Shown here: piece after piece, positions 3,614-27,569 of the stretch | Position numbering within the stretch: the stretch's first letter is position 1 | Layout: each line of letters starts with the position of its first letter | Source of the DNA: an uncultured Candidatus Saccharibacteria bacterium | Lineage (GTDB): Bacteria > Patescibacteriota > Minisyncoccia > UBA6257 > 2-01-FULL-56-20 | Reading direction: 5' to 3' | Assembly (NCBI GenBank): GCA_964467765.1 | Contig: CAYXSS010000010.1 | Location: 1 to 31,774, forward strand | Length of the DNA: 31,774 bases | Translations under genes and position numbers: made by a program | Notes under the pieces: generated by a model | Databases searched by the model: none | What the model was told of the DNA's origin: nothing | What the model saw: the letters and a program-made list of their open reading frames with translations, nothing else

Positions 3614-5971
3614 TCAATAAACTATTTTCAAATTGTCCAGAATAGGTTTCAAATTTTCAAATTGCAGACTTTTTTTGAAATCGAAAACTTTTCCAACTTC
3701 CTCAAGTTCGCGCTTTGCATCCTCCAGGCGGCCGGCAAAATAGTAGGCTATGCCCAACTTTGTTCTCGGCTCAAGTTCTGCAGACGCCATTTTGACAGCC
3801 GTTTCATAAAAAACTATTGCCTCTTCCAAATGGCCGGCTTCGGCAAATTGGTTGCCAACCGTAAGCGGTTCGTAAAAACTTGTCCAGCGGCGCCCCAGCT
3901 CCAGAGCGCGCTTGATCTCGCGGTAACCGGTTGCGTAATCATTGGCAGCGAAAGAAATCAAGCCGTAATAAAAATGGGAGTCGGCAACCTGATCGTCCAA
4001 AGAAAGGGCGTAGCGGACAAGCCCTAGAGCCGAGGCATAGTCGTTCTCAAGCGTTTTCGTTTTGGCGAGAGAAAAATAAATTTCCTGCCGCTTGGGGCTA
4101 AGCTTTAAAGCTATCGCCGCTTCGCGCTCGGCCGCCGGAATGAACCTCGACGGATCAATGTCCGAAATCTGATTGTACATATCAACCAAGGCATAATGAT
4201 TGTAGGCGTCGTCCGGGTGTTCGCTCGCAACTTTTTCCATGTCACCTATCGCTTCTAACACAGCATCTTTAGGAATAACTTGCGGATTATAGAAATATGT
4301 TTCCGACATAGAAGCGGCAAAGTCCCTCGCGAAATTCCATGAATATGGGCTCCAGGTGCTTACGGCTGCGCGGAATTCATCAATCCCCTTGGAAAGACGC
4401 GATCTATCCGTATCTATTCCTCGCGCAACGTCATAGAAAGCAAAAAATGTTCTGCGCGAAGCAAGTATTGAGCTTATATTGAAAAAATAGGCAAATAAAA
4501 GAGATGTGGATAGCGCCATTGCGAACAAAGACAACGAAACGCGCGCATCGTTTTTCTTTCTCGTTTGCGGAGCGGTTGCGCCGTTTATGGTCTGCGGCTT
4601 GCGATCCGCCATTTCGGATCTATATGCTCCATCGACAAATCCCGCCAAAACATACAGTAAAAGATTCGAGCCGATCGTGTCGAAAATAAAAAGGTTGGCG
4701 ACTGCGTAGCTTACCGTCGCCGCGACCAAAAATTGACCAAAAAGCTTTTCTTTGTATTTCCATGCTTCGTACAAAAATAAGGCCAGAAATAAAAAGCGCG
4801 CCAAGAAAAGCACGATTCCCCCGCTCGTTAAATCTTCCAAAACAAAATTATGCGGCTTGTCGAAGCGCGTTTCCTGGTAATTAACCCTCAAGGCTTTCGG
4901 ATCGTAATATTTATTGAAAACAATATTGAAATTTTCCGGACCGATGCCGAAGAGAGGCCGCTCCAAAAATCCTTGCCAGGCCGCGCGGGCAGCTATAAGC
5001 CGCGGCTGGAGATCTTCGGCAACAAAAGAAACGTTGCGAAATCTACCCAGTCCGGGGAACTTAGACCAAGTGTCGCTTCCGCGCGTAAACCAAAACACCA
5101 AGCCGGCAAAAATTACAAAAAAAGATATGCCAACATAAATTTTTCTCGAAGAAAGGGTTTCTAAAAATTTATTCCCTGAAAAATTTGGCGGCCGGGCGGC
5201 AAACATCAGAACGAGCGCGAAAAATCCAGCCGCCAGCCCCAAAATATTGCCACGCGTCTGCGTGATAAAAACCAGAGCGTAAGCGTCGAAAATGGCAACG
5301 AAAGCAAACCAAAGCTTTGACGAGAAAAATTTGGAGAAGGATCCGCCGTTTTTCTTACTGTTTCCGTTCGGAGAAAAATTTTCGCCGCTCGCAAAAAAAG
5401 AGCGAAAAAAGAAATAAATCGCCAAGAAAATATTCCAGGAAAGATAACCCGCAAAAAATGTGGGGTTGCCGAAAGTTGCCCCGGACCTTGTAAGCGGCTG
5501 AATTATAAGCAAACTACTGTCGTAGTAAAGTTCTATGCCGGAAAGTATGCCGATAAAAACCGAAGTTATAAGCGATGCGGAAAAAATTCTTTTCCATGGC
5601 AGCTCTTTGTACATCGAGGAAATTACGAGGGTAAGCGCTGCCATATGCAGCAGTCCAAAAACTCCGAAAGCTCTTTCGTAGGTCGAGAAAAAACTGCGCC
5701 AAGGGTCAATTCCCAGAAACGCCGTAAGCACAAGCGCAGCGGCAAATCCTGCAAGAGAAAGAGTAAGCGGTGTTTTTTTTGGACGATATCGTGAATCGAT
5801 TATGGCCAAAACAAGCCAGAGCGCGAAAAGCACTTCGACAATCGTCTGAAAAAACATCGCCTTGTCAAAAAGAAAAGGGTAAATACCTTCTTTCAAGAAA
5901 AACAGCGGAACAAGAATGACAACCGCAAAAACCAGACCGGTGATTATTTTAATAAGAAGACGCGAAGACAT
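3614..5971 (-). CDS. Wzy_C-domain (O-antigen ligase / O-oligosaccharyltransferase-like) polytopic membrane protein with a C-terminal TPR-repeat domain.
   Basis: 785 aa. More than ten TM helices. Shares Wzy_C-like conserved segments with the paralog at 16438-17967 (TQTRGNILGLAAGFFALVLMF / PLFGIGPENFNIVFNKYYD). The C-terminal ~300 aa are TPR-like (e.g. AYYFAGRLEDAKRELEEV). Confidence 0.75.
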   Translation of the reverse strand: MSSRLLIKIITGLVFAVVILVPLFFLKEGIYPFLFDKAMFFQTIVEVLFALWLVLAIIDSRYRPKKTPLTLSLAGFAAALVLTAFLGIDPWRSFFSTYERAFGVFGLLHMAALTLVISSMYKELPWKRIFSASLITSVFIGILSGIELYYDSSLLIIQPLTRSGATFGNPTFFAGYLSWNIFLAIYFFFRSFFASGENFSPNGNSKKNGGSFSKFFSSKLWFAFVAIFDAYALVFITQTRGNILGLAAGFFALVLMFAARPPNFSGNKFLETLSSRKIYVGISFFVIFAGLVFWFTRGSDTWSKFPGLGRFRNVSFVAEDLQPRLIAARAAWQGFLERPLFGIGPENFNIVFNKYYDPKALRVNYQETRFDKPHNFVLEDLTSGGIVLFLARFLFLALFLYEAWKYKEKLFGQFLVAATVSYAVANLFIFDTIGSNLLLYVLAGFVDGAYRSEMADRKPQTINGATAPQTRKKNDARVSLSLFAMALSTSLLFAYFFNISSILASRRTFFAFYDVARGIDTDRSRLSKGIDEFRAAVSTWSPYSWNFARDFAASMSETYFYNPQVIPKDAVLEAIGDMEKVASEHPDDAYNHYALVDMYNQISDIDPSRFIPAAEREAAIALKLSPKRQEIYFSLAKTKTLENDYASALGLVRYALSLDDQVADSHFYYGLISFAANDYATGYREIKRALELGRRWTSFYEPLTVGNQFAEAGHLEEAIVFYETAVKMASAELEPRTKLGIAYYFAGRLEDAKRELEEVGKVFDFKKSLQFENLKPILDNLKIVY

Positions 5972-6037
5972 TTTTATAAATTCCTGATTGCCGGTTACTA
6001 CAAATTAACACGAATTGCCGTTTAATTGCCAATCGGA

Positions 6038-6059
6038 AACCAAAATCCCCCGCCGAAGC
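6038..6059 (-). terminator. Rho-independent terminator: CCCCCGC-CGAA-GCGGGGG with flanking T/A runs.
   Basis: Perfect 7-bp GC stem. The minus strand is followed by ATTTTGGTTT. It lies just downstream of the large surface-protein gene. Confidence 0.65.
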
Positions 6060-6100
6060 GGGGGTTTTGGTAAACAAACTCTTTCCTCAAGTAAGAGCCG

Positions 6101-9100
6101 TTATGTTCCCTGAGCGTAGCTGACAGACTGGATGTTGATCGGCACGACGTAAGACTCAATGTTCACGCTGTTGGCAGCGGAATCAAGCGAGTCGAGCCAA
6201 CTCACATCGGCAACTGCAGCAATCTGCGCAGTCAGAGTCTGTGAAACACCGGACTGGGCGGCAGCCGTACCGTTAGTGGAATCAGCCCTCAAGCGGAAGC
6301 TCTTGGAAGAGCCGCCGGAAAGCTGGTAGTTCGCAAGGTTGAAGGTAAGGGTGTTGGAGCTAGATGCCGTAGCAAAGTAGCTTGAGCCGTTAGCCGTGTC
6401 ATACAGCTTAACTTTACAGCTGGAACAGGTCGTGTAGTCAGCCAAACTGGTGTAGTAGAAGCCAGCGCCGGTCGACGGAGCGGAACCGCTGAAGGTGAGC
6501 TTCACGGAACCGATCTGTACGCCACCGGCCGCGTCCGCGGCAAAGGTGATGTCGGCCAAATCATCAACCGAAGTCTTTGACCTGCCCGAGGTGTTGCCCA
6601 AGGCAGACGCAGTTACGGTAAGTTTTGACCTCAAAACCGTTGCGGTGTTCGCTGTGGCCGCTAAGCCAGAGACCGCAGAAGAAGCGTTCGACGTCGAACC
6701 GAGTGCGACAACAACTTGGTAGCTGTTGCCCAAAGCGTTCGTCGAGGAACCGATCGTCGCAATCTTGAAGACGTGAGTCGTGTTGTCCGTAGCGCCGGAT
6801 GAGGCGTAGGAAGACACGTCGCCTTTCAAAGTAAGCGAGATCGAACCGGCGCGAGGAACCACTACAGGCGAAGCAAAGCTGAACTTGTAGTAGTAACCGT
6901 CACCCGGGTTGGATGTCGTTGTGTTCTGCGTCGCTGCGCCGCCGGAAGCCAAGAGGCTGCCCGCGGACGAGTATACGCCGACGTTGCCGAACGCCGATTT
7001 CACGTTGCTTGCGCTCGAAACCTGATCGAAGACATAGAGATCGGTGATCTTAATGTCTTCCACGTTGGAAGTTTCGGTAAACCTGAAGATTGCCAAAGAG
7101 TTACCTGGAGAACCCATAACAAGCTGTTTGGCAGCCGGGGTGCCCGAGTCGATGGCAATCGTTACGGTTGACTGGCCAGCGAAGGATACAGATTGGCCGT
7201 TAACCGAGCCGCAAGAAATGGACGTTAGGGAAACGGCGCCGGATGCGGAGCATCCTGAAAGGCTCGTTGCCGGAACCACGCTACCGGAAGCTGACGAAAG
7301 CGAGTCGGCGTAGACGTCGACATACTTTGTCTGCCCGGCAGGAATAGTAAACGGCGAGCCGGAGAAGGAATAGGTCGTGCCGGAAGCAACAGTACCTTGC
7401 GTGGTACCGAATTGCACTCCGCCAACCAATACCTTGGCGTTCGCCCAAACGTTGCCGTTAACGATAAAGCTCACGTTGTTAACCGTCACGCCTTCAGCCG
7501 TAGAAGCCGTAAAGGCGTAAGAGCCAACCTTAAGACCAGTCGAGTTCTTGGCCAAGGTCTGGTCGCCTATAGAGGTGTTCTTGCCAACCGTGAGGCTCGC
7601 GGAAGCGAGCGTCAAGGCCGCGCCGGAAACCGACGCCGAAGAAGCAGTCTGGGAAGACGTCAAACCTTGCAAGTTGCTGGTGTTGCCGGTCAATTTGCCC
7701 TGGAGAGTGGTGAAGTTTGCCGTCGACTGAACGTCGCCGCGCAAAGACAAAACTCTCGTGGTGTTCGCCGGAACAACATAGTTGATCGGCGAAGAGCTGT
7801 TGCCGTAACAGTTCGTGTAGCTGTAGTTCGTGCTCGTTGTGTTGGAGTACGCGTTATCCGTACACGTCGCGCTCGTGGAGAGCGTGTTGATGGTCGTGCC
7901 AATCTGATTGCCGGCGTCGTCGACCAGCGCCAAGTTTTTCAAGGCGTCGTCAACGGTGTTGTTGTTGAAGCCGGTGAATGTCAGGCTGACGCCCAACCAT
8001 TTGACTTTTATGGCCTCGCCAGCGGCGTAAACCGTAAACTTGGCCATAGTAATACCGGACTGACCTTTGGCTAAGTTGCCAGTCGGAGTGTCGGTGGCCT
8101 GGGAAACCGTAACGGTTCCGGCCTGAATCGACACTTTCGTACCGGTGTTGGAAGCAGCCGCGATCGGCACGTTGTACTGGGAATCAACCGCCAAAATGTC
8201 GTACGAGTTCAAGATCTCGAACTGGAAGTCATAGCTCGGAGATCCCATGATATCGGCGAAAAGCTGGATGTTGTTTGAACCGGTGTTCAAAACTCCGGGA
8301 TTTGCCGAAATATCGAAGTAAGCATCGCCGCTAGCGGAAACTTGGGCCAGCGATGAGCCGACCTGGTTGCCGTTAACTTTCAAGATGACATTTCTGATGT
8401 CGCTCTTGTTGGCCGAGCCGATAACCCTAAACTTGACCGAGTTCAGCCAGACTTTGCTGTTGGTAGCGGTAAAGTTCCAGGCGCCAACCAAGTTGTTGGT
8501 CGTTCCGGCCGTAACCTGCGTTCCAATTGAGGAAGAGGCGACGGTCAGGGTGGCGAGCGACGGGTTGGAAACCGTGGTCACCGTAAAGACATTTCCGTTG
8601 AACGGAAACGCTCCGGAGGCGACAACGGAATTGCCCGAGGCGTCAACCGCCGTAACATCGGAGGCCGAAGACAAGGCAAAGCTCACTGAATTTCCTGCGG
8701 AAAGGCTCGTTGCCGGGTCAATCGAGAATCTGAATTCTCTTGTCTGACCGGCAGCAATGCTCAAATTCAAGCCGGAGAATACGATCACTCCGCCAGAAAT
8801 AGAGTTGTATTGCGAAAGAACCTGTCCGCTCTCCGTGACATAGGCTCCGGAAATGGAGCTGTCGGAGAGAACTCCAACCTTACGCAGGTTGATTTGGTTG
8901 ATTGTTACACCGGACGCAGTACCGGCTGTGAAATTCACGGCTAAAACCCTGACTCTCGCAGCAGCAGAACTGGTACCGGAAATCAACGCTCCCGCGGAAG
9001 GATTGTCCGCAGCCAAGCTAACCTGCAAGCCGGAAGCCGGAGCAGGAAGCTGGGGAGCGCCACCGCCGGACGGAGCCGGAGAAGGAGCTGCAGCCATCGC

Positions 9101-9499
9101 CGCAAAAGCAGCGCGGCTCTTTGGACCAAAATAACCGGTAGCATTGACGCCAGCGGCTGCTTGCCACTTGGCAACGGCCGCTTTGGTTAAAGAACCGAAG
9201 TAGCCCGTCGGAGCAACGGCAAGATAGCCTTTGCCCTGCAATACGCCTTGAAGGCATTTGACATCGTCTCCCTTAGATCCCACGGTGAGGTCGCGAGAAA
9301 AACTACAGGAGGCAGATACACCGCCTTTTGCGGAAAGCTGGGATTGCAACTGTTGAATCTGAGCCAAGAGCGCAGAAATTTGCGCCTGAAGATCAGAAAC
9401 AGACTGCGCCTGTGCAACCGGAATTAAGGCGCCGGACATGGAAAGCAATGTTGTCCCAGCCAGCGCCAAAGAAACAAATTTTGTTCTTAGTGTGTGCAT
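6101..9499 (-). CDS. Giant secreted or cell-surface protein, 1132 aa: signal peptide, coiled-coil, peptidoglycan-binding-like domain, then long S/T/G/A/N/V-rich repeated modules.
   Basis: N-terminal signal peptide (…LLSMSGALIPVAQAQ). Heptad-like segment LQAQISALLAQIQQLQSQL. PG_binding_1-like motif (KGDDVKCLQGVLQGKGYL…GYFGSLTKAAVAKWQ, with a partial second copy). About 900 aa of low-complexity sequence with recurring module-like segments. Confidence 0.8.
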   Translation of the reverse strand: MHTLRTKFVSLALAGTTLLSMSGALIPVAQAQSVSDLQAQISALLAQIQQLQSQLSAKGGVSASCSFSRDLTVGSKGDDVKCLQGVLQGKGYLAVAPTGYFGSLTKAAVAKWQAAAGVNATGYFGPKSRAAFAAMAAAPSPAPSGGGAPQLPAPASGLQVSLAADNPSAGALISGTSSAAARVRVLAVNFTAGTASGVTINQINLRKVGVLSDSSISGAYVTESGQVLSQYNSISGGVIVFSGLNLSIAAGQTREFRFSIDPATSLSAGNSVSFALSSASDVTAVDASGNSVVASGAFPFNGNVFTVTTVSNPSLATLTVASSSIGTQVTAGTTNNLVGAWNFTATNSKVWLNSVKFRVIGSANKSDIRNVILKVNGNQVGSSLAQVSASGDAYFDISANPGVLNTGSNNIQLFADIMGSPSYDFQFEILNSYDILAVDSQYNVPIAAASNTGTKVSIQAGTVTVSQATDTPTGNLAKGQSGITMAKFTVYAAGEAIKVKWLGVSLTFTGFNNNTVDDALKNLALVDDAGNQIGTTINTLSTSATCTDNAYSNTTSTNYSYTNCYGNSSSPINYVVPANTTRVLSLRGDVQSTANFTTLQGKLTGNTSNLQGLTSSQTASSASVSGAALTLASASLTVGKNTSIGDQTLAKNSTGLKVGSYAFTASTAEGVTVNNVSFIVNGNVWANAKVLVGGVQFGTTQGTVASGTTYSFSGSPFTIPAGQTKYVDVYADSLSSASGSVVPATSLSGCSASGAVSLTSISCGSVNGQSVSFAGQSTVTIAIDSGTPAAKQLVMGSPGNSLAIFRFTETSNVEDIKITDLYVFDQVSSASNVKSAFGNVGVYSSAGSLLASGGAATQNTTTSNPGDGYYYKFSFASPVVVPRAGSISLTLKGDVSSYASSGATDNTTHVFKIATIGSSTNALGNSYQVVVALGSTSNASSAVSGLAATANTATVLRSKLTVTASALGNTSGRSKTSVDDLADITFAADAAGGVQIGSVKLTFSGSAPSTGAGFYYTSLADYTTCSSCKVKLYDTANGSSYFATASSSNTLTFNLANYQLSGGSSKSFRLRADSTNGTAAAQSGVSQTLTAQIAAVADVSWLDSLDSAANSVNIESYVVPINIQSVSYAQGT

Positions 9500-9523
9500 T
9501 AATTAATTTCGACTTTATTTATT

Positions 9524-9543
9524 ATCGACCGATAATAATTTTC
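9524..9543. promoter_or_regulatory. Palindrome TTATTATCG-AC-CGATAATAA, a candidate operator 25 nt upstream of the surface-protein start codon.
   Basis: 9-bp perfect inverted arms, seen directly in the sequence. Confidence 0.3.
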
Positions 9544-9734
9544 TTTTTTGGTCGTCGACCTTTTGCGTCCGAAAAGCGCTTAACGCACCATCCGGACACT
9601 TTTTCCGTAACCCACGATCTTCGTGTCGACCCCCGCATAATCGGTGAGGACGATGCGCGAGGCACAAAGAGACGCAGGCTTAATATCAAAAATAAAAATC
9701 TCGCCTGTCCAAAGCGAGGCTAATTCAATGATGG

Positions 9735-9775
9735 CCCATGACCATAACCCAAACAAAGGTCATTATTTTTTTCAC
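9735..9775 (+). terminator. Terminator-like hairpin on the + strand (ATGACC-N14-GGTCAT followed by TATTTTTTTC) in an intergenic region.
   Basis: No plus-strand gene lies upstream. Could mark the 3' end of a small RNA running antisense to the surface-protein 5' region. Confidence 0.3.
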
Positions 9776-9966
9776 CATCTTGTGCTCGCATCTGCGAGCC
9801 GGTTCAGCCTCACTCTGAACCCCTATGCCAACCGAACCGCAAAAATTTCGTTTCGGAAGGATTAGGTTAAATTTTAGCAAAGCCTAAAAGCTTGATATTG
9901 TGTATAAACACACGAAACTGGCAGCTTTTGGCTAGCATAGTTTAAAACGATATAGCCCTCGGAAGG

Positions 9967-10746
9967 TTACCTTTGCTGATTAATATCGCCGGTGTCGCTA
10001 TTTACCAATTCTTCAGGCCTAAGCTGGTAATGCGTTGCCGGACCTCCGTTGCCGAGCCGCTCTATGGCGCCTCTCTCGAGTAGATTTTGCATATCATAGC
10101 GCAGCGTTCTCTCGCTTACACCGGAAAAAATATCCTGCAAGTCTCTTAATCGGCAAATTCCTTTTTGCCGCATAAAATCTATAATTGCCGATTGCCGCAT
10201 TGCCGCTTTTAATACGCTGTGTCCATTACCATTTTCTAGAGATGTCACATTGTTGTTTTCCAGAGAAGAAGGAAGGTTATTCTCTATAAAAGTATTTTGG
10301 AAAGTATTATTGCCTTCTCTTGTCTTTTCAACTGTTAGGGCCAAAGCTCCTCCTTCTTGACCAACCCGTTGCTCGGAAAATATATTTTCAAGGCTCACTT
10401 CTTTTGCCGAATTGCTTAACTCGGCAATTGCCGAGTTAAGCAATTTTAATTCGTTGATTATTAATTTGGAGTTTGGCGGATAAATAATTCCCAAGTCAGA
10501 TCCTATGCGCAGCAAATACTCCAAAGAAGAGGAGTAGGCGAAAATCTTTCCATAGTTCTTCTCGGCAAAAGACTCCAACAAAAAGAGGCCCTGGTTTTCC
10601 AAGTGTTCAGCGAACGCTTCCTTTTTAATCGAAGCGGCAACTCTGAACACCGCGTAGCATATCTCGTACGCCTTTCTCATAAAAAATTGTTCCCTCTCTT
10701 GGTGTGAAGCAAGATCCATTACTTGAGGAGTATAAATCATCGTCAT
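9967..10746 (-). CDS. Putative transcriptional regulator: helical N-terminal domain plus a C-terminal winged-helix/DeoR-like HTH.
   Basis: 259 aa. C-terminal segment LRDLQDIFSGVSERTLRYDMQNLLERGAIERLG resembles DeoR/WYL-type HTH regions. The N-terminal part is helical, with a low-complexity N/S/E stretch in the middle. Confidence 0.5.
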   Translation of the reverse strand: MTMIYTPQVMDLASHQEREQFFMRKAYEICYAVFRVAASIKKEAFAEHLENQGLFLLESFAEKNYGKIFAYSSSLEYLLRIGSDLGIIYPPNSKLIINELKLLNSAIAELSNSAKEVSLENIFSEQRVGQEGGALALTVEKTREGNNTFQNTFIENNLPSSLENNNVTSLENGNGHSVLKAAMRQSAIIDFMRQKGICRLRDLQDIFSGVSERTLRYDMQNLLERGAIERLGNGGPATHYQLRPEELVNSDTGDINQQR

Positions 10747-10817: not shown

Positions 10818-11630
10818 CTACCTCGTTCTGTTTATATTGTTCAAAACCTCTTCGGCCTTCCCAAGATTTTCCAAAGTTCCGCAGTCTAGTCTTCGCCCAT
10901 CGAACTCCCAGCCATATATTTGGCCGCCGGTAATCAATGATATCTGCAGAGCGACTGCCAAAGGAAGAGCGTCATTGGCAATAACCGGCAATGTTTCGGC
11001 AACACTTTTGAGATCGGCAATTATCTTCGGAGTTAAAACATACCCGCCAACAATTGTCAGATTAGACGGAGCTCTGTTTGCCGCAGGCTTCTCCACTATT
11101 TTCACAATGCGGAATAGACGACCGCCTATTTTTCCGGATATGGACATGTGCTTGCCTCTTGTTGCCACAACACCGAATCTGGAAACCAGGATTTTCGGCA
11201 CACGCTCCAAAAGAACGATAGGTTTTTTATATTTATTGAATAATTTCACCAGCGCGCCGGTAACAGGCATTCTGCTCAAAATAACATCGTCGCAAAACCT
11301 GACTATAAACGGCTCCTTGCCAAGTAAATCGTAGGCCTGGGCAATGGCGTGGCCATTGCCTCCGGGCGTAAGCTGTTCCCTGATGTAAAAGCGGAAATTG
11401 AAAATTTTTCTGCCCTTTTTAAGGTATTCTTCGAAGTGTTTTTTATGTTCCGGGTTGACTATCAAGACCACCTCTTTTATGCCGCTTATCTCTGCCTCCT
11501 CGAGAACGTATTCCAAAAGCGGCTTGCCGCAAACCGTTACAAGGTTTTTTGGAATTTTAGACGTAAGGGGCAGCAGGCGTTTGCCAAGTCCGGCAACGGG
11601 TAAAACAAGTTTGGTGATTTTTTGTCTCAT
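10818..11630 (-). CDS. galU: UTP--glucose-1-phosphate uridylyltransferase-like sugar nucleotidyltransferase.
   Basis: N-terminal nucleotidyltransferase signature (KLVLPVAGLGKRLLPLTSKIPKNLVTV…GKPLLEYVLEEAEISGIKEVVLIV). Start taken at the internal ATG (MRQKITK); the track ORF extends 18 codons further. Confidence 0.75.
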   Translation of the reverse strand: MRQKITKLVLPVAGLGKRLLPLTSKIPKNLVTVCGKPLLEYVLEEAEISGIKEVVLIVNPEHKKHFEEYLKKGRKIFNFRFYIREQLTPGGNGHAIAQAYDLLGKEPFIVRFCDDVILSRMPVTGALVKLFNKYKKPIVLLERVPKILVSRFGVVATRGKHMSISGKIGGRLFRIVKIVEKPAANRAPSNLTIVGGYVLTPKIIADLKSVAETLPVIANDALPLAVALQISLITGGQIYGWEFDGRRLDCGTLENLGKAEEVLNNINRTR

Positions 11631-11715
11631 CTGTCGGTTGTTAACTATCAAGTATACAACACTTAAAAACGTATTACATCCCAAGGATTAATAGCGACAA
11701 CGGCCCATTTCTTCC

Positions 11716-12498
11716 TTAAAAACCCCACTGGGCCGAACCTAAAATAATCGACACGAAAATAAAGAAAATGGAAAGATTGAGAAGAATTTTTCTTCTACTC
11801 AAAAGGCCGGCACAATAGTCAGCCGCACACTCCAGAAGTATCAAGGCGAAAACGAAGAAAATTGCCGACTGATATAAAAAATTCAAAGGGGCAAAAGTAA
11901 GTGCTATAAGAAGCTGCATAATCAAGAATGCCGTCACGACAAGCGTAGTATCTCGCCTTCCTTGTTTACAAGCGCGACCATCTTCCTGACCGATAAATAA
12001 TCTGGACAGAAAAAAGATCGGGGTCGCCGCCAGAAAGGCCCAAAAAACAACCCAAAAACTATCCCAGCGGCTAATATTTAAAAAATATTCTATGGACAGA
12101 AGGAAGGAGAGGAGCAAAGACAATGCTTCCGTAGCGGCGCCGCGATTAATTAAAATTAAGTCCTTTATTCCAATAATCAGAAAAAAAATGGCGCCAAATA
12201 AAAATGCAAACAGCGCGGATGGTTCTTCGATGAACGAAAAGAAAATAATTGCGGCGAAAGGCAGCAAAAGCCTCCCTGGTCTAAATAGCGGGACCAAATA
12301 AAAATAAACCGCTGCCAGAAAAAAAATCCAAAACGGCAAATAAAGCCAGGCTAAAGCGAAAATTACAGACTTGACCAAAAGAGAAATAATTGGCGATTTG
12401 AAATTCATATCCGCCAGAAGTCTTTTGGAAAAATCATAACACAAAATCCGCCGCCAAGCTTGGCGGCGGATTTTGTGTAACTTATCTCTTAATTTCAA
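11716..12498 (-). CDS. Polytopic membrane protein of unknown function, 4-nt overlap with clpB (operonic).
   Basis: 260 aa with about 8 hydrophobic helices. No motif recognised. Confidence 0.55.
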   Translation of the reverse strand: MKLRDKLHKIRRQAWRRILCYDFSKRLLADMNFKSPIISLLVKSVIFALAWLYLPFWIFFLAAVYFYLVPLFRPGRLLLPFAAIIFFSFIEEPSALFAFLFGAIFFLIIGIKDLILINRGAATEALSLLLSFLLSIEYFLNISRWDSFWVVFWAFLAATPIFFLSRLFIGQEDGRACKQGRRDTTLVVTAFLIMQLLIALTFAPLNFLYQSAIFFVFALILLECAADYCAGLLSRRKILLNLSIFFIFVSIILGSAQWGF

Positions 12499-15781: not shown

Positions 15782-16432
15782 TTACTTCGCTTTCCCCTGT
15801 TTTGCCCTGTATTCGGCTACCCTTTGCAAAAAGTCGTCAACAGCCAAGCCGGTTCTTTGGTCGTCCGGCCATAACGTAAGAATCCTCCCGGCATAAAACT
15901 TGACGCGCTCCACGTCTCCGGCAATGCGGTAAACGTCGAAAAGTCCGTAAAGCGACTGCGGCCGGTTTGGGCCAAGCTCAACTCCTTTCTCGTAGTACTT
16001 TTTGGATTTCTCCAAATATTCCGGCATGCGGGTTTTGAGGAAAGCCGTCTCGTTAAGCGCTCCCAAAATATAAAGATTTTGGCCAAAGCTCATCCCCGTT
16101 CCTTTGTCGATGATCGGCTTATAGTAGCTTTCGGCCAAGTTGACGAGATTAATTACGGTTTGCGGATCATTGTTGCTGCTGACAAGATTCAAAACCAAAT
16201 TAGTGGAATTGCGCACGAGCTCTTCCTGACCGATGGGCGAAGGCAGGTCAAGGGGCTGCGAGATGTTGCTTTTGAACACTTCGAATGTCGGCACGGCCGA
16301 CCTTAAGTTTCTCAGGGTCGCTATAAAAACCTGGGCCTTAACCATCGGCAAATAAGATCCGTAATAGGCTACAAATCCAAAAATTGCTATGGCGGCAAAA
16401 GCGATTATTTTCTTGGTGATTGCGCTGCTCAT
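15782..16432 (-). CDS. Membrane-anchored protein, 216 aa, directly downstream of the second Wzy_C gene; possibly TPR-like.
   Basis: N-terminal TM helix followed by a helical soluble domain. It sits where the fused TPR domain sits in the 785-aa paralog. Confidence 0.5.
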   Translation of the reverse strand: MSSAITKKIIAFAAIAIFGFVAYYGSYLPMVKAQVFIATLRNLRSAVPTFEVFKSNISQPLDLPSPIGQEELVRNSTNLVLNLVSSNNDPQTVINLVNLAESYYKPIIDKGTGMSFGQNLYILGALNETAFLKTRMPEYLEKSKKYYEKGVELGPNRPQSLYGLFDVYRIAGDVERVKFYAGRILTLWPDDQRTGLAVDDFLQRVAEYRAKQGKAK

Positions 16433-16437
16433 GTTTA

Positions 16438-17967
16438 TTATTTGTTTTTTTGAAGAAGAACCCCGGGTATGGCCGAGTTTCGGTAGAAGTAGAAATTAGA
16501 GAAGGCCATAAACAAGAACAGGTTAATATACATCGGCAAAACTTCGAAAATCGCCGCATTTTGAACCAGATATCCTACGGCAAGCCCAAGTATCAATCCT
16601 CTTATGATTTTTTCTTTGGCTTCCGCGCTGGATGATCCGTTTTCTTGACCCGCATTAGGAGTAAGATCTTTTTTTCTAAATGACCAGAAAAGAGCTACAT
16701 ACATTCCTATATAAGAAAGGAATCCCAGGGCTCCTGATTCGGCAAGATAGTCGAAATAAACGCTGTGTGCGCGATCAAACCAGGTCTCGGTATTCGCGCC
16801 GGGCACGAAATGGCGCTTGTCAAAATATTTGTCGAAAACAGCACTGAAATTCTCCGGACCCCAGCCAAGAATCGGCCGCTCCAAAAATCCTTTGAAAGCC
16901 GATCCCCATGTCCAAGTTCTCGTTTCAAGCTCGTGCGTCTTCAAGGAAATATTGAAAATTCTTCCGCCGGGTAAACTCCTTACAAAATCGGTGTTGCTGA
17001 AATAAATTAAATTCGCTCCCAATAAAACCACGATGGCAAGCGTGATAAGAATTTTCTTGCGCCAAGCGGCAAACGCAACCGCCGAATAAACCAGGAATGC
17101 CACGATGGAAAAAGCCAATCCGACGAACGTAGCCCGCGTTTGACTAAGAAATAAAAAGAGAAGGAAAAAAAGCGCCGAAGCTGCAAAAAATACCTTCTTG
17201 CGAATATTCTCCGAGCGAACGCAAAGATATAAAACATAAAAGATGGCGAAGAGAAGGTAGGGTGCAACATAAGCCGGATTTCCCAAAGAACCCTGAAAGC
17301 GAGCTGTCGAAAGTTTTTGCCACCAACTTAAATTGAGATAGGTTTCCCTGTCACTTGGTCCGGAAAATTGATAGGGGCTGATGAAATTGTTGCCGAGAAA
17401 GAAATTCGCGGCAATGCCGTAGGCAACCATCAAAAACGCGGCAACAGCTGCAACTTTGAAAATTCTTCTCCAATCTTCTTCTTTTTTAAAAAGCAAAACC
17501 GAAAGGAGAAATAACCCGTAATAATGGAGTATTTGGAACGCGCCCTCCCCGCGTTCGAAGTTGGACCAAAAAGCAGCAGCCGGATCGTAAGCGAAAAACG
17601 AAGCCAAAAGAAAAGCCAAAACGAAGGCGGAGGCCGCGAGAAAAATCGGTTTCTTCCACACCTCTTTTATTTCCGCCGCCGCCTCTCCTTCTTTGGCTTC
17701 GAATGCCCACCAAAGCAAATAAAAAACCGCGGCCAACTCTATGGAAATTCTGAAAAAATAGTCTTTCCCGCCGATAAAAGGGAAAAACATCGAGGTCATT
17801 ACGACGGCAACGCTAAAAAGAGACGTACCGAGGAAAAATTTCGCGGCGCGGCGGAAGGTTCCTCGTCCGAACAAAATCCAGCCGATAATACCGGCCACAA
17901 GAACAATAAAAAAGTAATACCAATTATCCAGCAGACTGGCGTAAGAATCAAATAATTGAGTAAACAT
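16438..17967 (-). CDS. Wzy_C-domain (O-antigen ligase/O-OTase-like) polytopic membrane protein, a paralog of 3614-5971 without the TPR fusion.
   Basis: 509 aa. Shares conserved blocks with the 785-aa protein (SQTRATFVGLAFSIVAFLVY; PILGWGPENFSAVFDKYFD). Confidence 0.75.
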   Translation of the reverse strand: MFTQLFDSYASLLDNWYYFFIVLVAGIIGWILFGRGTFRRAAKFFLGTSLFSVAVVMTSMFFPFIGGKDYFFRISIELAAVFYLLWWAFEAKEGEAAAEIKEVWKKPIFLAASAFVLAFLLASFFAYDPAAAFWSNFERGEGAFQILHYYGLFLLSVLLFKKEEDWRRIFKVAAVAAFLMVAYGIAANFFLGNNFISPYQFSGPSDRETYLNLSWWQKLSTARFQGSLGNPAYVAPYLLFAIFYVLYLCVRSENIRKKVFFAASALFFLLFLFLSQTRATFVGLAFSIVAFLVYSAVAFAAWRKKILITLAIVVLLGANLIYFSNTDFVRSLPGGRIFNISLKTHELETRTWTWGSAFKGFLERPILGWGPENFSAVFDKYFDKRHFVPGANTETWFDRAHSVYFDYLAESGALGFLSYIGMYVALFWSFRKKDLTPNAGQENGSSSAEAKEKIIRGLILGLAVGYLVQNAAIFEVLPMYINLFLFMAFSNFYFYRNSAIPGVLLQKNK

Positions 17968-24719: not shown

Positions 24720-25258
24720 GGAAATTGAACTCAAGATTTATGACACAAGATTCAGGATTCAAGGTTATTATTTTGATTTTAGCTCTGGCGGCGGGAGTTT
24801 TATTGATTTTGCCGCAAAAAAGTTTCGCATTAACAACCACTGGTTGTGATGTCGGCGAAGCCACCAGCATCCCTTTTTGGGGACCGTTTGTTTCTTGCAG
24901 TGGCCCGCAATACATCAACTGCGACTCTTCTGGTAAGTGTCAGGAAAACCGCTGCGCCTGCAAACCGTTCGACCAGGGCGGCAAGGCACAGTTAATACAG
25001 ACTTTCATCAACGTCGTCTATTTCGGCATGACCGTCGCCCTTTTCGTCCTTGCGCCCATCCTTTTCGCCTGGGGAGGAATACTTATCATGATCGGGGCGT
25101 CGAGCATCGAAGAAATCGGCGGCAAAAAAGCGAGCATCAGCAAAGGCAGGTCCGTCATCACCGGCACCTTCGTCGGCGTTTTAATCGTCCTTGTCGCCTA
25201 CGTGCTCGTGAAAACTTTCATAAACGTCCTCGGCATCGGCGGCGTGGGAGGGTTTTAG
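24716..25258 (+). CDS. T4SS-type (TrbC/VirB2-like) pilin paralog P1 with an N-terminal Cys-rich insert.
   Basis: 180 aa. Signal/TM segment, 7 Cys in the following ~45 aa, then the two-helix pilin core (FINVVYFGMTVALFVLAPILFAWGGILIMIGASS … TGTFVGVLIVLVAYVLVKTFINVLG). 4-nt overlap with the SBP gene. Confidence 0.6.
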   Translation: MRKLNSRFMTQDSGFKVIILILALAAGVLLILPQKSFALTTTGCDVGEATSIPFWGPFVSCSGPQYINCDSSGKCQENRCACKPFDQGGKAQLIQTFINVVYFGMTVALFVLAPILFAWGGILIMIGASSIEEIGGKKASISKGRSVITGTFVGVLIVLVAYVLVKTFINVLGIGGVGGF

Positions 25259-25377
25259 AAAATTTCATCACAAGACAAATGACAACGGCCACAAACCAAC
25301 GACGCGCAAGTGTTTTGCGGGAACTTGCGGAGCGCGGCGGCGCGAGCGTGAGGAATTTTTCAGTAAGAAAAATATCC

Positions 25378-26238
25378 GTGCCCCGAAAAATATTTGCGCG
25401 TCGCGGTATATTCATAAAACTTTTACCGGCAACGATTCTTTTCTCTCTGCCGGCGCTCGCCCTGGCGCAACAGCCGGAAAGCCCCGTCTCCTACGTGCAA
25501 AGTTTTTATAATTTCGCCTTGGCCATCGGCGGCATTTTGGCTTTCGGCGCGATAGTCTACGGAGGCGTAATTTATACTTTCGCCGCGGGAAATCCCTCAA
25601 AGCAAGATGAAGGAAAAAAATGGATCTGGGGCGCGCTTTTGGGCCTCCTCCTTCTTGCCGGAGCATATCTGGTTCTCTACACAATCAACCCCAAGCTTGT
25701 GGAACTTTCTCTTACTGGACTGCCTGGTCTTCCACCGGGTGGGGGCGGCGGAACGGGACAAGATATAAAACTTACGAATTGCACATCGAAGGCGCCTTCC
25801 TACGAAACGGGGTATGCAAATACGTCCGGCATGGTAAGTCCCGGTGTGGCCGCTATCGAAAGCTGTGTCAGAAATAATTCCAAATTTAGCGGCATCGGCA
25901 ACATTACAACTTGGCAGGGCGAACACACCTGTAATGCCGTATCCGGTTCCTCAAATTACGGCTCGGAGTCTTGTCATTTTGGGGGAAAATTCTGCGGGGA
26001 CGGATCTCACGCCATCGATTTCGGCAAAAATGGCCTGCCTGCCGGCGCCACTCTTAAGGATGTATACGACTATGCCAGTAACAAAAATGGCCAGTGCGGC
26101 CCGCATTCGGTACAATGCTTTTACGAAATAGGAGATTACAGACTGCCCGATCAAAGCAATCCGGGTAACGCCGATCACGTTCACTGCAATGTTGATACGG
26201 ACGGCACCAATGAACCGCAAGGATGCGGCTGTAAGTGA
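25378..26238 (+). CDS. T4SS-type pilin paralog P2 with a ~190-aa C-terminal Cys/His-rich extracellular domain. Start uncertain: GTG 25378, or ATG 25279 giving a long leader.
   Basis: Signal peptide KLLPATILFSLPALALAQQ. Pilin core FYNFALAIGGILAFGAIVYGGVIYTFAAGNPSKQDEGKKWIWGALLGLLLLAGAYLVLYTINPKLV. C-terminal domain with more than 12 Cys, ending GCGCK. Confidence 0.65.
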   Translation: MPRKIFARRGIFIKLLPATILFSLPALALAQQPESPVSYVQSFYNFALAIGGILAFGAIVYGGVIYTFAAGNPSKQDEGKKWIWGALLGLLLLAGAYLVLYTINPKLVELSLTGLPGLPPGGGGGTGQDIKLTNCTSKAPSYETGYANTSGMVSPGVAAIESCVRNNSKFSGIGNITTWQGEHTCNAVSGSSNYGSESCHFGGKFCGDGSHAIDFGKNGLPAGATLKDVYDYASNKNGQCGPHSVQCFYEIGDYRLPDQSNPGNADHVHCNVDTDGTNEPQGCGCK

Positions 26239-26284
26239 CGGCATTTGCAAAATCATTTGGCAAATAGTTCAATTATAAAAACGT

Positions 26285-26656
26285 ATGAGAAACAAATTAT
26301 TTTCAATTTTGTCGTTCGCGTTTGCGTTTCCGTTCGCAAGTATTGAACGGGCCTTGGCGCAAGGACAAGCCGGCGACGCGGGCAGCGTGCCCAAGCTTAC
26401 CAATCCCCTCTGCGGCGGCAATCCCAATTGCACCTTGGCCGACATAGCCGACAAAATCATCACGTTTCTTTTTGACGTTTCCCTTCCCATTGTTTCCATT
26501 ATGGTTTTAATCGGCGGTTTTCAAATGCTCACGGCCGGCGGCAACGCGGAAAAATTCGGCGCGGGCAAAAAAACGGTTGCCTACGCGGCGATCGGCTTTG
26601 CCGTTATAAGCGTCGCTCGCGGCATCACTTCCATTATCAAAAGTATCACCGGCTAA
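26285..26656 (+). CDS. T4SS-type pilin paralog P3.
   Basis: 123 aa. Signal peptide, short Cys pair, then core SLPIVSIMVLIGGFQMLTAGGNAEKFGAGKKTVAYAAIGFAVISVARGITSII. Confidence 0.7.
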   Translation: MRNKLFSILSFAFAFPFASIERALAQGQAGDAGSVPKLTNPLCGGNPNCTLADIADKIITFLFDVSLPIVSIMVLIGGFQMLTAGGNAEKFGAGKKTVAYAAIGFAVISVARGITSIIKSITG

Positions 26657-26676
26657 ATAATGAAACCGTTTTTTCT

Positions 26677-26705
26677 TGAAGAAAAATGGGGGTTTTGCTA
26701 TAATA
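26677..26705 (+). promoter_or_regulatory. Promoter TTGAAG, 17-nt spacer, extended TGCTATAAT, for pilin P4.
   Basis: Seen directly, about 55 nt upstream of the ATG at 26764. Confidence 0.5.
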
Positions 26706-26763
26706 AAACGTAAGATTCAAGCAATCGAAAAGGTCGAGGTTTTTAGAAATAGGTTTTCGATAA

Positions 26764-27138
26764 ATGAAACAAGCACTAAAAATCGCGGCGGCCTCCGGCT
26801 CAATCGCTCTTGTGTCCCTTGTCCCCTTCTTTGCTTTCGCGCAGGTTAACATCAATCCTGTTCCGCCTCCGCCATACCAAGGACCATCCGGCCTGCAGCA
26901 GGTAAGCGGATGGCTGAACTTATTGCGGGCAATTCTTACATGGGTGGCCATCGCTTTCTGGATTTTCGCAACAATCTTCATCATCCTCGCCGCTTTCAGC
27001 TACCTTACGGCCGCGGGAGATCCGGAAAAGGTAAAAGGCGCCTCGAGCAAGCTGCTTTATGCCGTCATCGCCATCGCCATCGGGCTTTTGGCCTACGGCA
27101 TTCCGGCTATCGTCCAGAGCTTTTTACAAAGGCAGTAA
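26764..27138 (+). CDS. T4SS-type pilin paralog P4.
   Basis: 124 aa. Signal peptide, Pro-rich linker, then core WIAIAFWIFATIFIILAAFSYLTAAGDPEKVKGASSKLLYAVIAIAIGLLAYGIPAIVQSF. Closely similar to P5. Confidence 0.7.
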   Translation: MKQALKIAAASGSIALVSLVPFFAFAQVNINPVPPPPYQGPSGLQQVSGWLNLLRAILTWVAIAFWIFATIFIILAAFSYLTAAGDPEKVKGASSKLLYAVIAIAIGLLAYGIPAIVQSFLQRQ

Positions 27139-27166
27139 TAACTTGTTGGCTGCCGTTGGTCTCTTA

Positions 27167-27200
27167 CCCCGCCCCATACTGGGGCGGGGTTGCCGTTTGT
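27167..27200 (+). terminator. Terminator: CCCCGCCCC-ATACT-GGGGCGGGG followed by a T-rich tract.
   Basis: 9-bp all-GC stem plus TTGCCGTTTGTT, after P4. The extended -10 TGTTATAAT of P5 (27198-27206) follows immediately. Confidence 0.65.
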
Positions 27201-27206
27201 TATAAT
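27198..27206 (+). promoter_or_regulatory. Extended -10 element (TGTTATAAT) for pilin P5.
   Basis: Seen directly, 43 nt upstream of the ATG at 27249. Confidence 0.45.
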
Positions 27207-27248
27207 GATTTGTACATACTAAAAGGTCTCAAAAAACACACGGCCAAA

Positions 27249-27569
27249 ATGAAAAAAATTAAAATTTCTTTGACATCGCTTCTGCTGCCCGTGTCCGTGT
27301 TGGCGCAAAACAACCAATCTCCGATAAATTCCGCGAAGGATATTATCGAACTTTTTAAAAAATTTCTTTACTGGATTGCGACGGCGTTTTGGATTTGGGC
27401 CGTCATCGCCATAATCTACGCCGGGTTTCTGTATCTCACCGCGGCGGGAGATTCCGAAAAACTGGACAAGGCCAAAAAACAGCTTCTTTATTCCGTCATC
27501 GCCGTAGCGATAGGACTCGTGGCTTACGGAGTTCCGGCGATTGTAAACAGTATTTTGAACAGGCAATAA
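27249..27569 (+). CDS. T4SS-type pilin paralog P5.
   Basis: 106 aa. Start taken at the internal ATG (MKKIKISLTSLLLPVSVLAQ). Core WIATAFWIWAVIAIIYAGFLYLTAAGDSEKLDKAKKQLLYSVIAVAIGLVAYGVPAIVNSI. Confidence 0.7.
   Translation: MKKIKISLTSLLLPVSVLAQNNQSPINSAKDIIELFKKFLYWIATAFWIWAVIAIIYAGFLYLTAAGDSEKLDKAKKQLLYSVIAVAIGLVAYGVPAIVNSILNRQ

Follow-up and report, generated by a model that had tools for sequence, protein, structure and literature searches.

The 31.8-kb stretch of DNA analysed here (the window), from an uncultured bacterium of the Parcubacteria/Paceibacteria group (CPR), encodes, side by side on its reverse strand, a 1,132-aa surface protein and a 785-aa membrane enzyme in which a Wzy_C domain is joined to a TPR domain. 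In our best reading, to which we assign a probability of about 0.45, the former is most likely an S-layer protein, with a transcription unit of its own preceded by a structured leader, and the latter O-glycosylates it. This reading builds on the architecture, fold, conserved catalytic residues and topology pattern of the enzyme and on the conserved linkage of the two genes, from which we infer the protein acceptor, the glycosylation site, the glycan and the formation of an S-layer lattice. A preliminary description of the same DNA had also proposed protein O-glycosylation; its surface protein, transferase family and gene linkage are borne out by the present data. The sequence does not establish the enzyme as an O-oligosaccharyltransferase, and the lack of glycan-assembly genes in the window, the lack of an enriched sequon and the terminator between the two genes weigh against this reading.

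A Wzy_C–TPR membrane enzyme

The gene at 3614–5971 (−) encodes a 785-aa membrane enzyme of the WaaL/PglL fold, as assigned from Pfam, AlphaFold, Foldseek and profile searches. The combination of Wzy_C with C-terminal TPRs reported earlier holds: the Wzy_C match (PF04932) scores 53.6 bits against a Pfam gathering score of 31.7 and recurs in 14 of 14 relatives, and searches of NCBIfam returned TPR matches only. The Wzy_C domain comprises 12 TM helices (aa 1–457; 5971–4601 (−)) and is followed by a basic cytoplasmic loop, a 13th TM helix (aa 480–505; 4534–4457 (−)) and a 265-aa TPR domain (aa 520–785; 4414–3617 (−)) that is extracytoplasmic in the predicted topology, in which alternating Lys/Arg-rich loops (a positive-inside pattern) would place the TPR domain as well as the catalytic loop outside. 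The AlphaFold model (pLDDT 89, pTM 0.88) matched WaaL in Foldseek (7tpg_B, TM 0.64 on target). The best match among solved structures by sequence profile was 9rmk_A, an 'Oligosaccharyltransferase' with PglL-like numbering (1.5e-11, 47 bits), nearly level with WaaL (5.6e-10, 42 bits), so the profile comparison suggested in the preliminary description establishes Wzy_C membership and does not separate the PglL and WaaL families.

The catalytic-site equivalents R240 (5254–5252 (−)), R324 (5002–5000 (−)) and H374 (4852–4850 (−)) are invariant among relatives of the enzyme and align with R224, R298 and H349 of PglL, and the likewise invariant P339 and G342/G344 correspond to PglL P313 and G316/G318; these equivalences are based on the PglL numbering in PMC3643930, which the numbering of 9rmk_A fits. 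The enzyme thus has the Arg/Arg/His triad and the P-x-x-G-x-G motif in common with Neisseria PglL, whereas PglL Q178/N180 is replaced in the present family by N169 and Thr or Ala (Thr171 in the window protein). Unlike PglL, the family has a 13th TM helix and a large TPR array and lacks PglL_A (PF15864) and Wzy_C_2, neither of which was matched even at E ≤ 10 in the 14 family members or in the two Wzy_C proteins of the window; the present organism also differs in having no outer membrane or periplasm. WaaL (7TPG) shares the 12-TM fold and the catalytic residues, but has neither the 13th TM helix nor a TPR domain. Neither a match to the NCBIfam WaaL equivalog nor any LPS gene was found in the window, in keeping with the earlier preference for a putative glycosylated S-layer or fibril system over LPS ligation. 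CPR cells are not expected to offer a lipid A–core acceptor. Judged by sequence, these data support a member of the WaaL/PglL superfamily of lipid-linked-glycan transferases with intact catalytic residues; the same features would fit an O-oligosaccharyltransferase, a ligase or a polymerase alike.

The second, 509-aa Wzy_C protein of the preliminary description is present at 16438–17967 (−). It scores higher with the Pfam Wzy_C model (63.8 bits against the cutoff of 31.7), has no TPR domain and gives weak, sub-cutoff NCBIfam matches to PEP_O_lig_1 (the exosortase-associated 'O-glycosylation ligase'), IctB and a repeat-unit polymerase. The 216-aa product of the gene at 15782–16432 (−) combines a TM anchor at its N-terminus with a TPR-like helical domain and is a homologue of residues about 482–661 of the 785-aa enzyme (hhalign 91% over 170 columns). 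Taken together, the 509-aa and 216-aa proteins make up the fused enzyme in split form. In other lineages such a pair adjoins the surface-protein gene; in five related loci, orthologues of the 509-aa protein are encoded divergently upstream of the surface-protein gene.

Both forms have counterparts in Gram-positive bacteria, in which S-layer glycosylation of this type is already known. WsfB of Paenibacillus alvei, an S-layer O-oligosaccharyltransferase encoded in an slg cluster, consists of Wzy_C and a C-terminal TPR, and the slg cluster of Geobacillus stearothermophilus encodes the Wzy_C enzyme WsaB with a separate small TPR protein, WsaA (PMC2943079). Likened by their described architecture, these systems are the closest precedent for the fused (785 aa) and split (509 aa plus 216 aa) forms of the window, and the present locus would resemble them further: no outer membrane surrounds the cell, and a Wzy_C gene lies near the gene for the surface or S-layer protein. 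Unlike the slg clusters, the window contains only a GalU-like gene and no glycosyltransferases, WsaP-like initiator, ABC transporter or Wzx, and the surface protein carries PG_binding_1 for anchoring, as against the SLH/SCWP binding of the WsfB and WsaB systems.

The outward TPR domain of 265 aa, whether fused or on a separate TM–TPR protein, is the feature noted for WsfB and WsaB/WsaA, and it argues against the somewhat unlikely alternative that the 785-aa enzyme makes a cell-wall polysaccharide, either as a Wzy- or TuaE-like glycopolymer polymerase/ligase or as a ligase with a lipid or wall acceptor, and that the adjacency reflects a shared envelope function, for example a polymer under the surface layer. 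A polymerase or ligase would be consistent with a Wzy_C domain, which is common to polymerases, ligases and O-oligosaccharyltransferases, with a WaaL fold and profile match about equal to that of PglL, with the absence of PglL-specific domains and with the weak resemblance of the 509-aa paralogue to repeat-unit polymerase and 'O-glycosylation ligase' families; the presence of two Wzy_C paralogues within 32 kb would likewise suit a polymerase paired with a ligase. However, no glycosyltransferase, Wzx or Wzz gene accompanies the enzyme in the 31.8-kb window, which also contains no initiating phosphoglycosyl transferase or flippase, and with PG_binding_1 attaching the surface protein to peptidoglycan directly, a secondary polymer would not be needed.

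A peptidoglycan-anchored surface protein

Domain calls, an AlphaFold model and homologues identify the product of the gene at 6101–9499 (−) as a 1,132-aa secreted, peptidoglycan-anchored surface (probable S-layer) protein. A Sec-type signal peptide (aa 1–31; 9499–9407 (−)) is followed by a conserved amphipathic helix (aa 34–56), which might support oligomerization, a PG_binding_1 domain scoring 44.6 bits (aa 77–129; 9271–9113 (−)), a disordered A/P/S/G linker (aa 137–157; 9091–9029 (−)) and six β-sandwich modules (aa 158–1132; 9028–6104 (−)), which profile–profile comparison relates to one another with a probability of up to 97%. The export signal, PG-binding domain and repeated module-like segments seen in the preliminary description were thereby recovered. 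The S/T/G/A/N-rich composition was also correct (S 15.3, A 13.1, T 10.2, G 9.6 and N 6.4%), but the protein is not mucin-like: in the model (mean pLDDT 83.9) the S/T-rich body is predicted with confidence to be folded (pLDDT about 85–95), and the linker (aa 138–157) is the sole disordered low-complexity stretch. In 50 homologues, S/T/P/G/A residues make up a mean fraction of 0.83 of this hypervariable linker, which resembles the flexible Ser/Ala/Pro-rich segments that PglL modifies (PMC3643930). Neither N-x-S/T, D-S/T-hydrophobic or GT motifs nor any known O- or N-glycosylation sequon was enriched in the surface-protein family.

Searches retrieved 654 homologues, mostly full length, among Parcubacteria proteins, and full-length members occur in genomes named as Liptonbacteria, Kaiserbacteria and Paceibacteria. 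Because full-length conservation extends over more than 600 Parcubacteria proteins, and no DNA tandem repeats were found, the mis-assembled or low-complexity artefact considered earlier is excluded. Abundance of the protein is suggested by the GC3 of its gene (0.64, the highest in the window, tied with one other gene), by the terminator described below and by the literature, in which PG-binding-domain proteins are among the top-expressed secreted genes of three Paceibacteria (Kuroda et al. 2024, PMC10936435). Patescibacteria S-layer candidates of 1,131–1,274 aa have been predicted in the supplement of a preprint (bioRxiv 10.1101/2024.05.28.596244). Likened by description, the published proteins share with the present one the phylum, the size class, PG-binding and Ig-like domains and secretion; searches of these two studies found neither an associated Wzy_C enzyme nor glycosylation mentioned.

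In our best reading, the 1,132-aa protein is the main wall-anchored surface-array protein of the cell, most likely its S-layer protein, which would be expected to form a lattice. The family is very uniform in length (about 1,100–1,170 aa) and in architecture over hundreds of genomes, whereas adhesins usually vary in repeat number, which argues against the rather improbable alternative that the protein is a wall-anchored adhesin or fibril for host-cell attachment, glycosylated or not, that forms no S-layer lattice. Such a role would agree with a predicted pI near 8, with the Foldseek matches, which are to generic Ig-like arrays only, among them the adhesin PrgB and domains of streptococcal adhesins, and with the interpretation by Kuroda et al. 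(PMC10936435) that the highly expressed PG-binding proteins serve to attach to the host; the conserved N-terminal helix, however, could aid oligomerization, and patescibacterial proteins of like size are predicted to form hexagonal lattices (supplement of bioRxiv 10.1101/2024.05.28.596244).

Conserved linkage of the two genes

In 93 related loci that could be evaluated, all 53 Wzy_C ORFs found are no more than 5 kb from the surface-protein gene; the 511 kb of flank beyond contain none. Counted by locus, a Wzy_C gene this close is present in 15 of 44 evaluable loci of one set and 29 of 49 of another, and an adjacent one is absent in about 40–65%, by set; in LiPW_15, the surface-protein gene is followed by a small GIY-YIG gene and HU, without a Wzy_C gene. 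The entire ClpB-to-ECF-sigma block, with the conserved order ClpB, membrane protein, NTP transferase, HTH and surface protein, is syntenic in close relatives, and part of the linkage can thus be put down to inheritance. The pairing is nevertheless kept down to about 25–35% surface-protein identity, even where other gene order is gone, and is still seen in distant loci lacking ClpB/HU synteny, those of Azambacteria and Kaiserbacteria included; in four loci, other PG_binding_1 surface paralogues also adjoin a Wzy_C gene. A similar association is known for pglL genes, 21 of 31 of which adjoin pilin targets, often in the same orientation (PMC3643930). That the pairing of surface protein and Wzy_C enzyme recurs in many relatives makes it plausible, if unproven, that the surface protein is glycosylated.

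It is improbable that the enzyme is an O-oligosaccharyltransferase with another main target, general or pilin-directed, and that the adjacency is inherited gene order, as the classical modification of pilins by PglL/TfpO-type enzymes, the general and target-unlinked PglL of Neisseria, the three T4SS-pilin-domain proteins of the window, the syntenic ClpB-to-sigma block of close relatives and the separate transcription units of the two genes might suggest, since the linkage outlives loss of the block in distant lineages, with 53 of 53 Wzy_C ORFs within 5 kb, and extends to the PG_binding_1 paralogues.

The architecture and linkage described here allow us to propose how S-layer O-glycosylation might proceed. 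The surface protein would be exported through Sec and held to peptidoglycan by its N-terminal PG_binding_1 domain, with the flexible P/S/T/G/A linker and then the six Ig-like β-sandwich modules pointing outward. We suggest that the 785-aa enzyme transfers en bloc a glycan built on undecaprenyl pyrophosphate, acting at the outer face of the cell's membrane, and that its outward TPR domain most likely recruits the protein acceptor. The best candidate acceptor would be the adjacent surface protein, and the likeliest site Ser/Thr in the disordered linker; the outcome would parallel the O-glycosylation of S-layer proteins that WsfB or WsaB/WsaA carries out in Gram-positive bacteria.

The NTP transferase of the block is a GalU-like sugar-1-phosphate nucleotidylyltransferase (NTP_transferase, 97.1 bits), and its link to glycosylation is generic. 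The preliminary description had called it galU and ended it at 11630; the ORF runs from 10818 to 11684 (−), and its score with the GalU equivalog TIGR01099 of NCBIfam (159.7 bits) is far below the cutoff of 326.8, which leaves a GalU-like protein of putative specificity. Elsewhere, at 24937–27569, the window encodes three T4SS-pilin-domain proteins.

Terminator and structured leader

Between the surface-protein and Wzy_C–TPR genes lies a GC-rich hairpin resembling an intrinsic terminator (CCCCCGC-TTCG-GCGGGGG, 7 GC pairs, with a T-rich tail; 6047–6064 (−)), and 79 of 83 related loci have a comparable hairpin no more than 160 nt past the surface-protein stop codon. The surface-protein gene is therefore a strongly terminated transcription unit of its own with a structured leader ahead; the two genes have the strand and position given earlier, but, with a terminator between them, do not form one unit, and to speak of a module overstates the case.

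The conserved leader (9500–9966 (−)) contains a DnaA-box-like TTATACACA (9907–9899 (−)), hairpin 1 with the invariant loop G-GUGAGGC (9821–9801 (−)), a terminator-like hairpin with a T-run (9718–9700 (−)), hairpin 2 with the loop UCCUCAC, complementary to loop 1 (9658–9634 (−)), and GTCGA repeats (9630–9626, 9559–9555, 9529–9525 and 9513–9509 (−)). The hairpins are conserved and covary, and an Rfam search with the leader gave no match. The palindrome earlier taken as an operator candidate exists near 9519–9538 and belongs to these repeats; the conserved unit is the GGTCGA motif, which occurs four times in the 135 nt upstream of the surface-protein ATG. The possible antisense small RNA with a terminator, placed at 9735–9775, gains no support, as that stretch is non-conserved and the conserved terminator-like hairpin (9700–9718) is on the strand of the surface-protein gene.

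A wider reading that joins these elements is doubtful as a whole: a Paceibacteria-wide Wzy_C–TM–TPR enzyme, fused or split, would be the S-layer O-oligosaccharyltransferase, its TPR array would recognize the helix/PG-binding/linker module of the surface protein and PG_binding_1 paralogues, and the leader would govern surface-protein expression, with the invariant, complementary GUGAGG/CCUCAC loops around the terminator acting as a kissing-loop or sRNA-target switch. If true, CPR bacteria would thereby gain their first defined system of envelope maturation and regulation, with a previously undescribed leader.

Upstream of the leader, the gene at 9967–10746 (−) encodes a 259-aa protein with an uncharacterized N-terminal part and a DeoR-type HTH at aa 184–234. 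As its HTH_DeoR is C-terminal and no sensor domain was found in it, the protein departs from the DeoR-family layout of N-terminal HTH and C-terminal sensor. It is a candidate regulator, and its gene is more constant than any other upstream of the surface-protein gene.

Proposed role of the gene pair

From gene context and analogy with known systems, we give a probability of roughly 45% to the reading that the large protein encoded at 6101–9499(-) is a peptidoglycan (PG)-anchored surface-array or S-layer protein, and that its neighbour, encoded at 3614–5971(-), is an Und-PP-glycan transferase that O-glycosylates it. The surface protein would be anchored to PG and form a surface array or S-layer, the 785-aa enzyme would transfer the Und-PP-linked glycan, and the outward TPR domain of the enzyme would recruit the surface protein for O-glycosylation. 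Both open reading frames exist exactly as claimed in the preliminary description, which had read them from sequence alone as a protein O-glycosylation module; its observation was largely correct, and its O-glycosylation interpretation is plausible and partly supported. Little work has been done on the envelopes of the CPR (Patescibacteria), yet these cells are host-attached and it is through their surface that they meet the host. The conserved pairing of the dominant wall-anchored surface protein with a glycan-transferring enzyme offers a concrete hypothesis on surface decoration, which is testable because Paceibacteria co-cultures now exist.

The Wzy_C–TPR enzyme and its split counterpart

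The 785-aa enzyme combines a Wzy_C domain (53.6 bits) with C-terminal TPRs. Its AlphaFold model (pLDDT 89, pTM 0.88) contains 12 transmembrane (TM) helices, a disordered Lys/Arg-rich loop (aa 458–479), a thirteenth TM helix (aa 480–505) and a TPR superhelix (aa 520–785), and the WaaL ligase 7TPG (TM 0.64) is the one membrane protein that it matches in fold. Sequence searches of PDB chains with this protein and with the second Wzy_C protein of the window (509 aa, 16438–17967(-)) gave TPR matches only, or nothing; matches beyond the TPRs required a profile of the TM domain built from 14 diverse relatives. This profile matched 9rmk_A, a 610-residue chain deposited as 'Oligosaccharyltransferase' (E = 1.5e-11, 47 bits), and WaaL 7tpg (E = 5.6e-10, 41.9 bits). 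The 9rmk_A residue numbers in the alignment coincide with the published Neisseria PglL numbering, and R240, R324, P339, G342, G344 and H374 of the enzyme, all invariant within the family, align with PglL R224, R298, P313, G316, G318 and H349; the counterparts of PglL R224, R298 and H349 in E. coli WaaL are R215, R288 and H338. The enzyme thus has the Arg/Arg/His and P-x-x-G-x-G residues in common with PglL but differs from it in the absence of PglL_A, which, like Wzy_C_2, was undetectable in 14/14 family members even at E ≤ 10. NCBIfam gave no match to a WaaL equivalog. Neither a confident classification of the enzyme as WaaL nor an LPS gene set in the window, which would have spoken against the first reading, was obtained. 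A rival reading, in which the enzyme ligates or polymerises a glycopolymer, we consider rather unlikely.

Lys/Arg-rich loops alternate along the enzyme (aa 59–67, 120–127, 195–210, 260–275, 405–409 and 458–479). By the positive-inside rule and the WaaL topology, the catalytic loop (aa 297–375) and the TPR domain would both face outside, the latter being placed there by the thirteenth TM helix.

The gene for the 509-aa protein is followed by one encoding a 216-aa protein (15782–16432(-)) with one TM anchor and a TPR-like domain. As a single sequence, the 216-aa protein matched the Wzy_C–TPR alignment weakly (26%); it took a four-sequence profile to make the match convincing, and this profile aligned with about residues 482–661 of the fused enzyme (91% probability, 170 columns), and an iterative search from the 216-aa protein converged on fused Wzy_C–TPR enzymes. 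Judged by this alignment and convergence, the 509-aa and 216-aa proteins are a split form of the 785-aa enzyme, so that the window carries both fused and split Wzy_C–TM–TPR forms. In L008, L009, L012, L015, L037 and L123 (L-numbers denote collected loci around surface-protein homologues), the counterpart of the split pair is a fusion or sits divergently 5′ of the surface-protein gene. Small TM–TPR ORFs 3′ of the surface-protein gene in L018, L019 and L026 match the generic TPR region only and were discounted. The same relation between two forms is known from S-layer glycosylation clusters of Gram-positive bacteria, where WsfB is a Wzy_C+TPR protein and WsaB is accompanied by WsaA, a small TPR protein (PMC2943079). 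Since Gram-positive bacteria are already known to glycosylate S-layer proteins with Wzy_C+TPR enzymes, the gain here is one of taxonomic reach, not of concept; in the literature searched, we found no description of Wzy_C+TPR S-layer O-glycosylation in CPR bacteria.

The surface protein

The 1,132-aa surface protein begins with a Sec-type signal peptide ending in AQA, followed by a helix (aa 34–56) with heptad-like residues that hardly vary across 50 homologues, a PG_binding_1 domain (aa 77–129, 44.6 bits) that is the only part matching solved structures, a disordered linker of A/P/S/G (aa 138–157, from about 137) and an all-beta body. The AlphaFold model (50-sequence alignment) has a mean pLDDT of 83.9 and shows a folded body, with values of about 85–95; Foldseek comparison of the model with the PDB retrieved only generic Ig-like arrays (PrgB, integrin legs and complement MG domains). 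Comparison of profiles from six modules of the body identified them as diverged copies of a single beta-sandwich module (97% probability for D2–D4 and D3–D5, 95% for D4–D5 and 93% for D1–D6), which bears out the module-like repeats noticed at first reading. There are 654 homologues, mostly full length and 47–72% identical, whose names place the window, a complete 31,774-bp contig, in a Parcubacteria/Paceibacteria bacterium (Liptonbacteria/Kaiserbacteria-like); a separate homology search seeded with a Kaiserbacteria homologue revealed a further large Kaiserbacteria branch. As no DNA tandem repeats were found in the window and most of these homologues are full length, a mis-assembled low-complexity artefact is excluded.

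The S/T-rich stretch of about 900 aa had been regarded as an ideal O-glycan substrate. Because that body is folded, it is the disordered linker that suggests itself as a realistic PglL-like acceptor: in the 50 homologues it spans 11–39 hypervariable residues, is 83% S/T/P/G/A and is at times pure poly-Thr.

Patescibacterial S-layer candidates of the size of the surface protein have been predicted (bioRxiv 10.1101/2024.05.28.596244), and in Paceibacteria the secreted genes with the highest expression include those for PG-binding-domain proteins (PMC10936435). Likened to our protein by size and domain description, both support the S-layer reading; the accessions of the published candidates were not visibly recovered in the search seeded with the Kaiserbacteria homologue. 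We consider it unlikely that the protein is an adhesin and not a lattice protein, a reading that does not exclude the others.

The surface-protein gene has a GC content of 0.55 (GC3 0.64), markedly above its neighbours at 0.40–0.50, which is consistent both with the Ala/Gly/Ser/Thr-rich composition and with high-expression codon bias. Paralogues with the signal peptide, helix, PG_binding_1 domain and linker in common, and with different bodies (fn3, beta-helix), cluster beside the main surface-protein gene and the Wzy_C gene in L001 (13624–20380), L022, L027–L033, L035 and L042.

Gene neighbourhood and linkage

Taking one genome per species, we assembled 52 loci, to which we added 80 from metagenomes, and scanned all ORFs with profiles. 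In close relatives (46–65% identity) the entire block is syntenic, in the order ClpB, membrane protein, GalU-like, HTH protein, surface protein, Wzy_C–TPR, HU, 251-aa protein, anti-sigma and ECF sigma; adjacency there is therefore partly inherited. The Wzy_C–TPR gene is missing between the surface-protein gene and HU in L098, L100, L107–109, L116, L121, L133 and L135. In distant lineages (25–40% identity; Azambacteria, Kaiserbacteria and others) the block is lost, but a Wzy_C gene still lies 3′ of the surface-protein gene in L010, L011, L016, L017, L022, L025, L028 and L042, or divergently upstream of it in L008, L009, L012, L013, L015 and L037. Overall, a Wzy_C gene was found ≤5 kb from the surface-protein gene in 15/44 and 29/49 evaluable loci, and all Wzy_C ORFs (53/53) fell within 5 kb (759 kb of sequence), with none in the 511 kb beyond, a contrast that is inflated by phylogenetic non-independence; the pattern is not due to chance.

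The neighbour found most constantly beside the surface-protein gene across Paceibacteria is the upstream gene for a 259-aa protein (9967–10746(-)) with a DeoR-type HTH at its C terminus and an uncharacterised 180-aa N-terminal region; this protein may be a dedicated regulator. In the syntenic block, ClpB and the GalU-like gene are always separated by a gene for a conserved 260-aa polytopic membrane protein (11716–12498(-)), which had no family match.

Five observations argue against calling the surface-protein and Wzy_C–TPR genes a module. First, a hairpin of seven GC pairs with a T-tract (6047–6064) lies between them, and a similar one follows the surface-protein gene in 79/83 loci, whatever gene comes next; the surface-protein gene is therefore its own transcription unit. 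Second, the 31,774-bp window contains no glycosyltransferase, initiating phosphoglycosyl transferase, flippase or ABC exporter. Third, the supposed galU, thought to supply UDP-glucose, does encode a GalU-like nucleotidyltransferase, but one far below the equivalog cutoff that supplies a generic precursor. Fourth, N-x-S/T, D-S/T-[AILVMT], GT-x and S/T-A/P sequons were unenriched relative to composition-matched shuffles. Fifth, the S/T-rich body of the surface protein is folded, which leaves the linker as the realistic acceptor. The enzyme could also be an O-oligosaccharyltransferase with other targets, such as pilins, for which three consecutive T4SS-pilin-domain proteins (433, 123 and 219 aa; 24937–27569(+)) are possible substrates, a reading that we consider improbable.

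A conserved leader of the surface-protein gene

A conserved, structured leader precedes the surface-protein gene and may prove more original than the gene pair itself. On the coding strand, at 9634–9821(-), it comprises hairpin 1, a terminator-like hairpin and hairpin 2. Hairpin 1 (9821–9801(-)) has an invariant loop, G-GUGAGGC, and compensatory changes at 6/6 stem pairs (40 distinct sequences), with 96.7% paired; these values were reached by 0/500 shuffles, and slid controls collapsed. The terminator-like hairpin (9718–9700(-)), CUCGC-loop-GCGAG with a U-run, is present in 48/62 loci. Hairpin 2 (9658–9634(-)) exposes the loop (N)CCUCAC, the exact complement of loop 1, and each of its apical four pairs shows 9–10 double changes; RNAalifold recovered these 4 bp only, missing the longer stem because indels spoil the alignment. 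Since loop 1 could also base-pair with GCCUCGC, the 5′ arm of the terminator, the leader is possibly an attenuator, or else an sRNA targeting the neighbouring mRNA.

A scan of 3.75 Mb, covering the collected loci and the window on both strands, found the composite motif 48 times, always directly upstream of a surface-protein gene and on the same strand, and the leader lies at the same position in L001, L003, L005, L007, L014, L023 and about 40 metagenome loci. Rfam searches of the window at the gathering score and of the leader at a permissive E-value returned tRNAs and noise only. We regard the leader as a candidate new cis-regulatory RNA or sRNA–target pair. The antisense small RNA with a terminator suggested at 9735–9775 falls in a non-conserved part of the intergenic region and is not upheld.

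Within 135 nt of the ATG, four GTCGA copies, mostly (A)AGGTCGA, were observed (9509–9630(-)) where about 0.2 are expected; relatives hold 2–5 copies, and AAAGGTCGA is invariant. Counted as GGTCGA, the conserved pattern has three to five copies. The palindrome first proposed as an operator is present among these copies, but the conserved unit is the repeated GGTCGA motif, which the adjacent HTH protein, or an RNA-binding factor, may recognise. Last, a DnaA-box-like 9-mer (TTATACACA in the window at 9899–9907(-); consensus TTATCCACA) has a perfect copy about 60–90 nt upstream of hairpin 1 in 17/62 loci, including L001, L005, L007, L014, L023 and L029.
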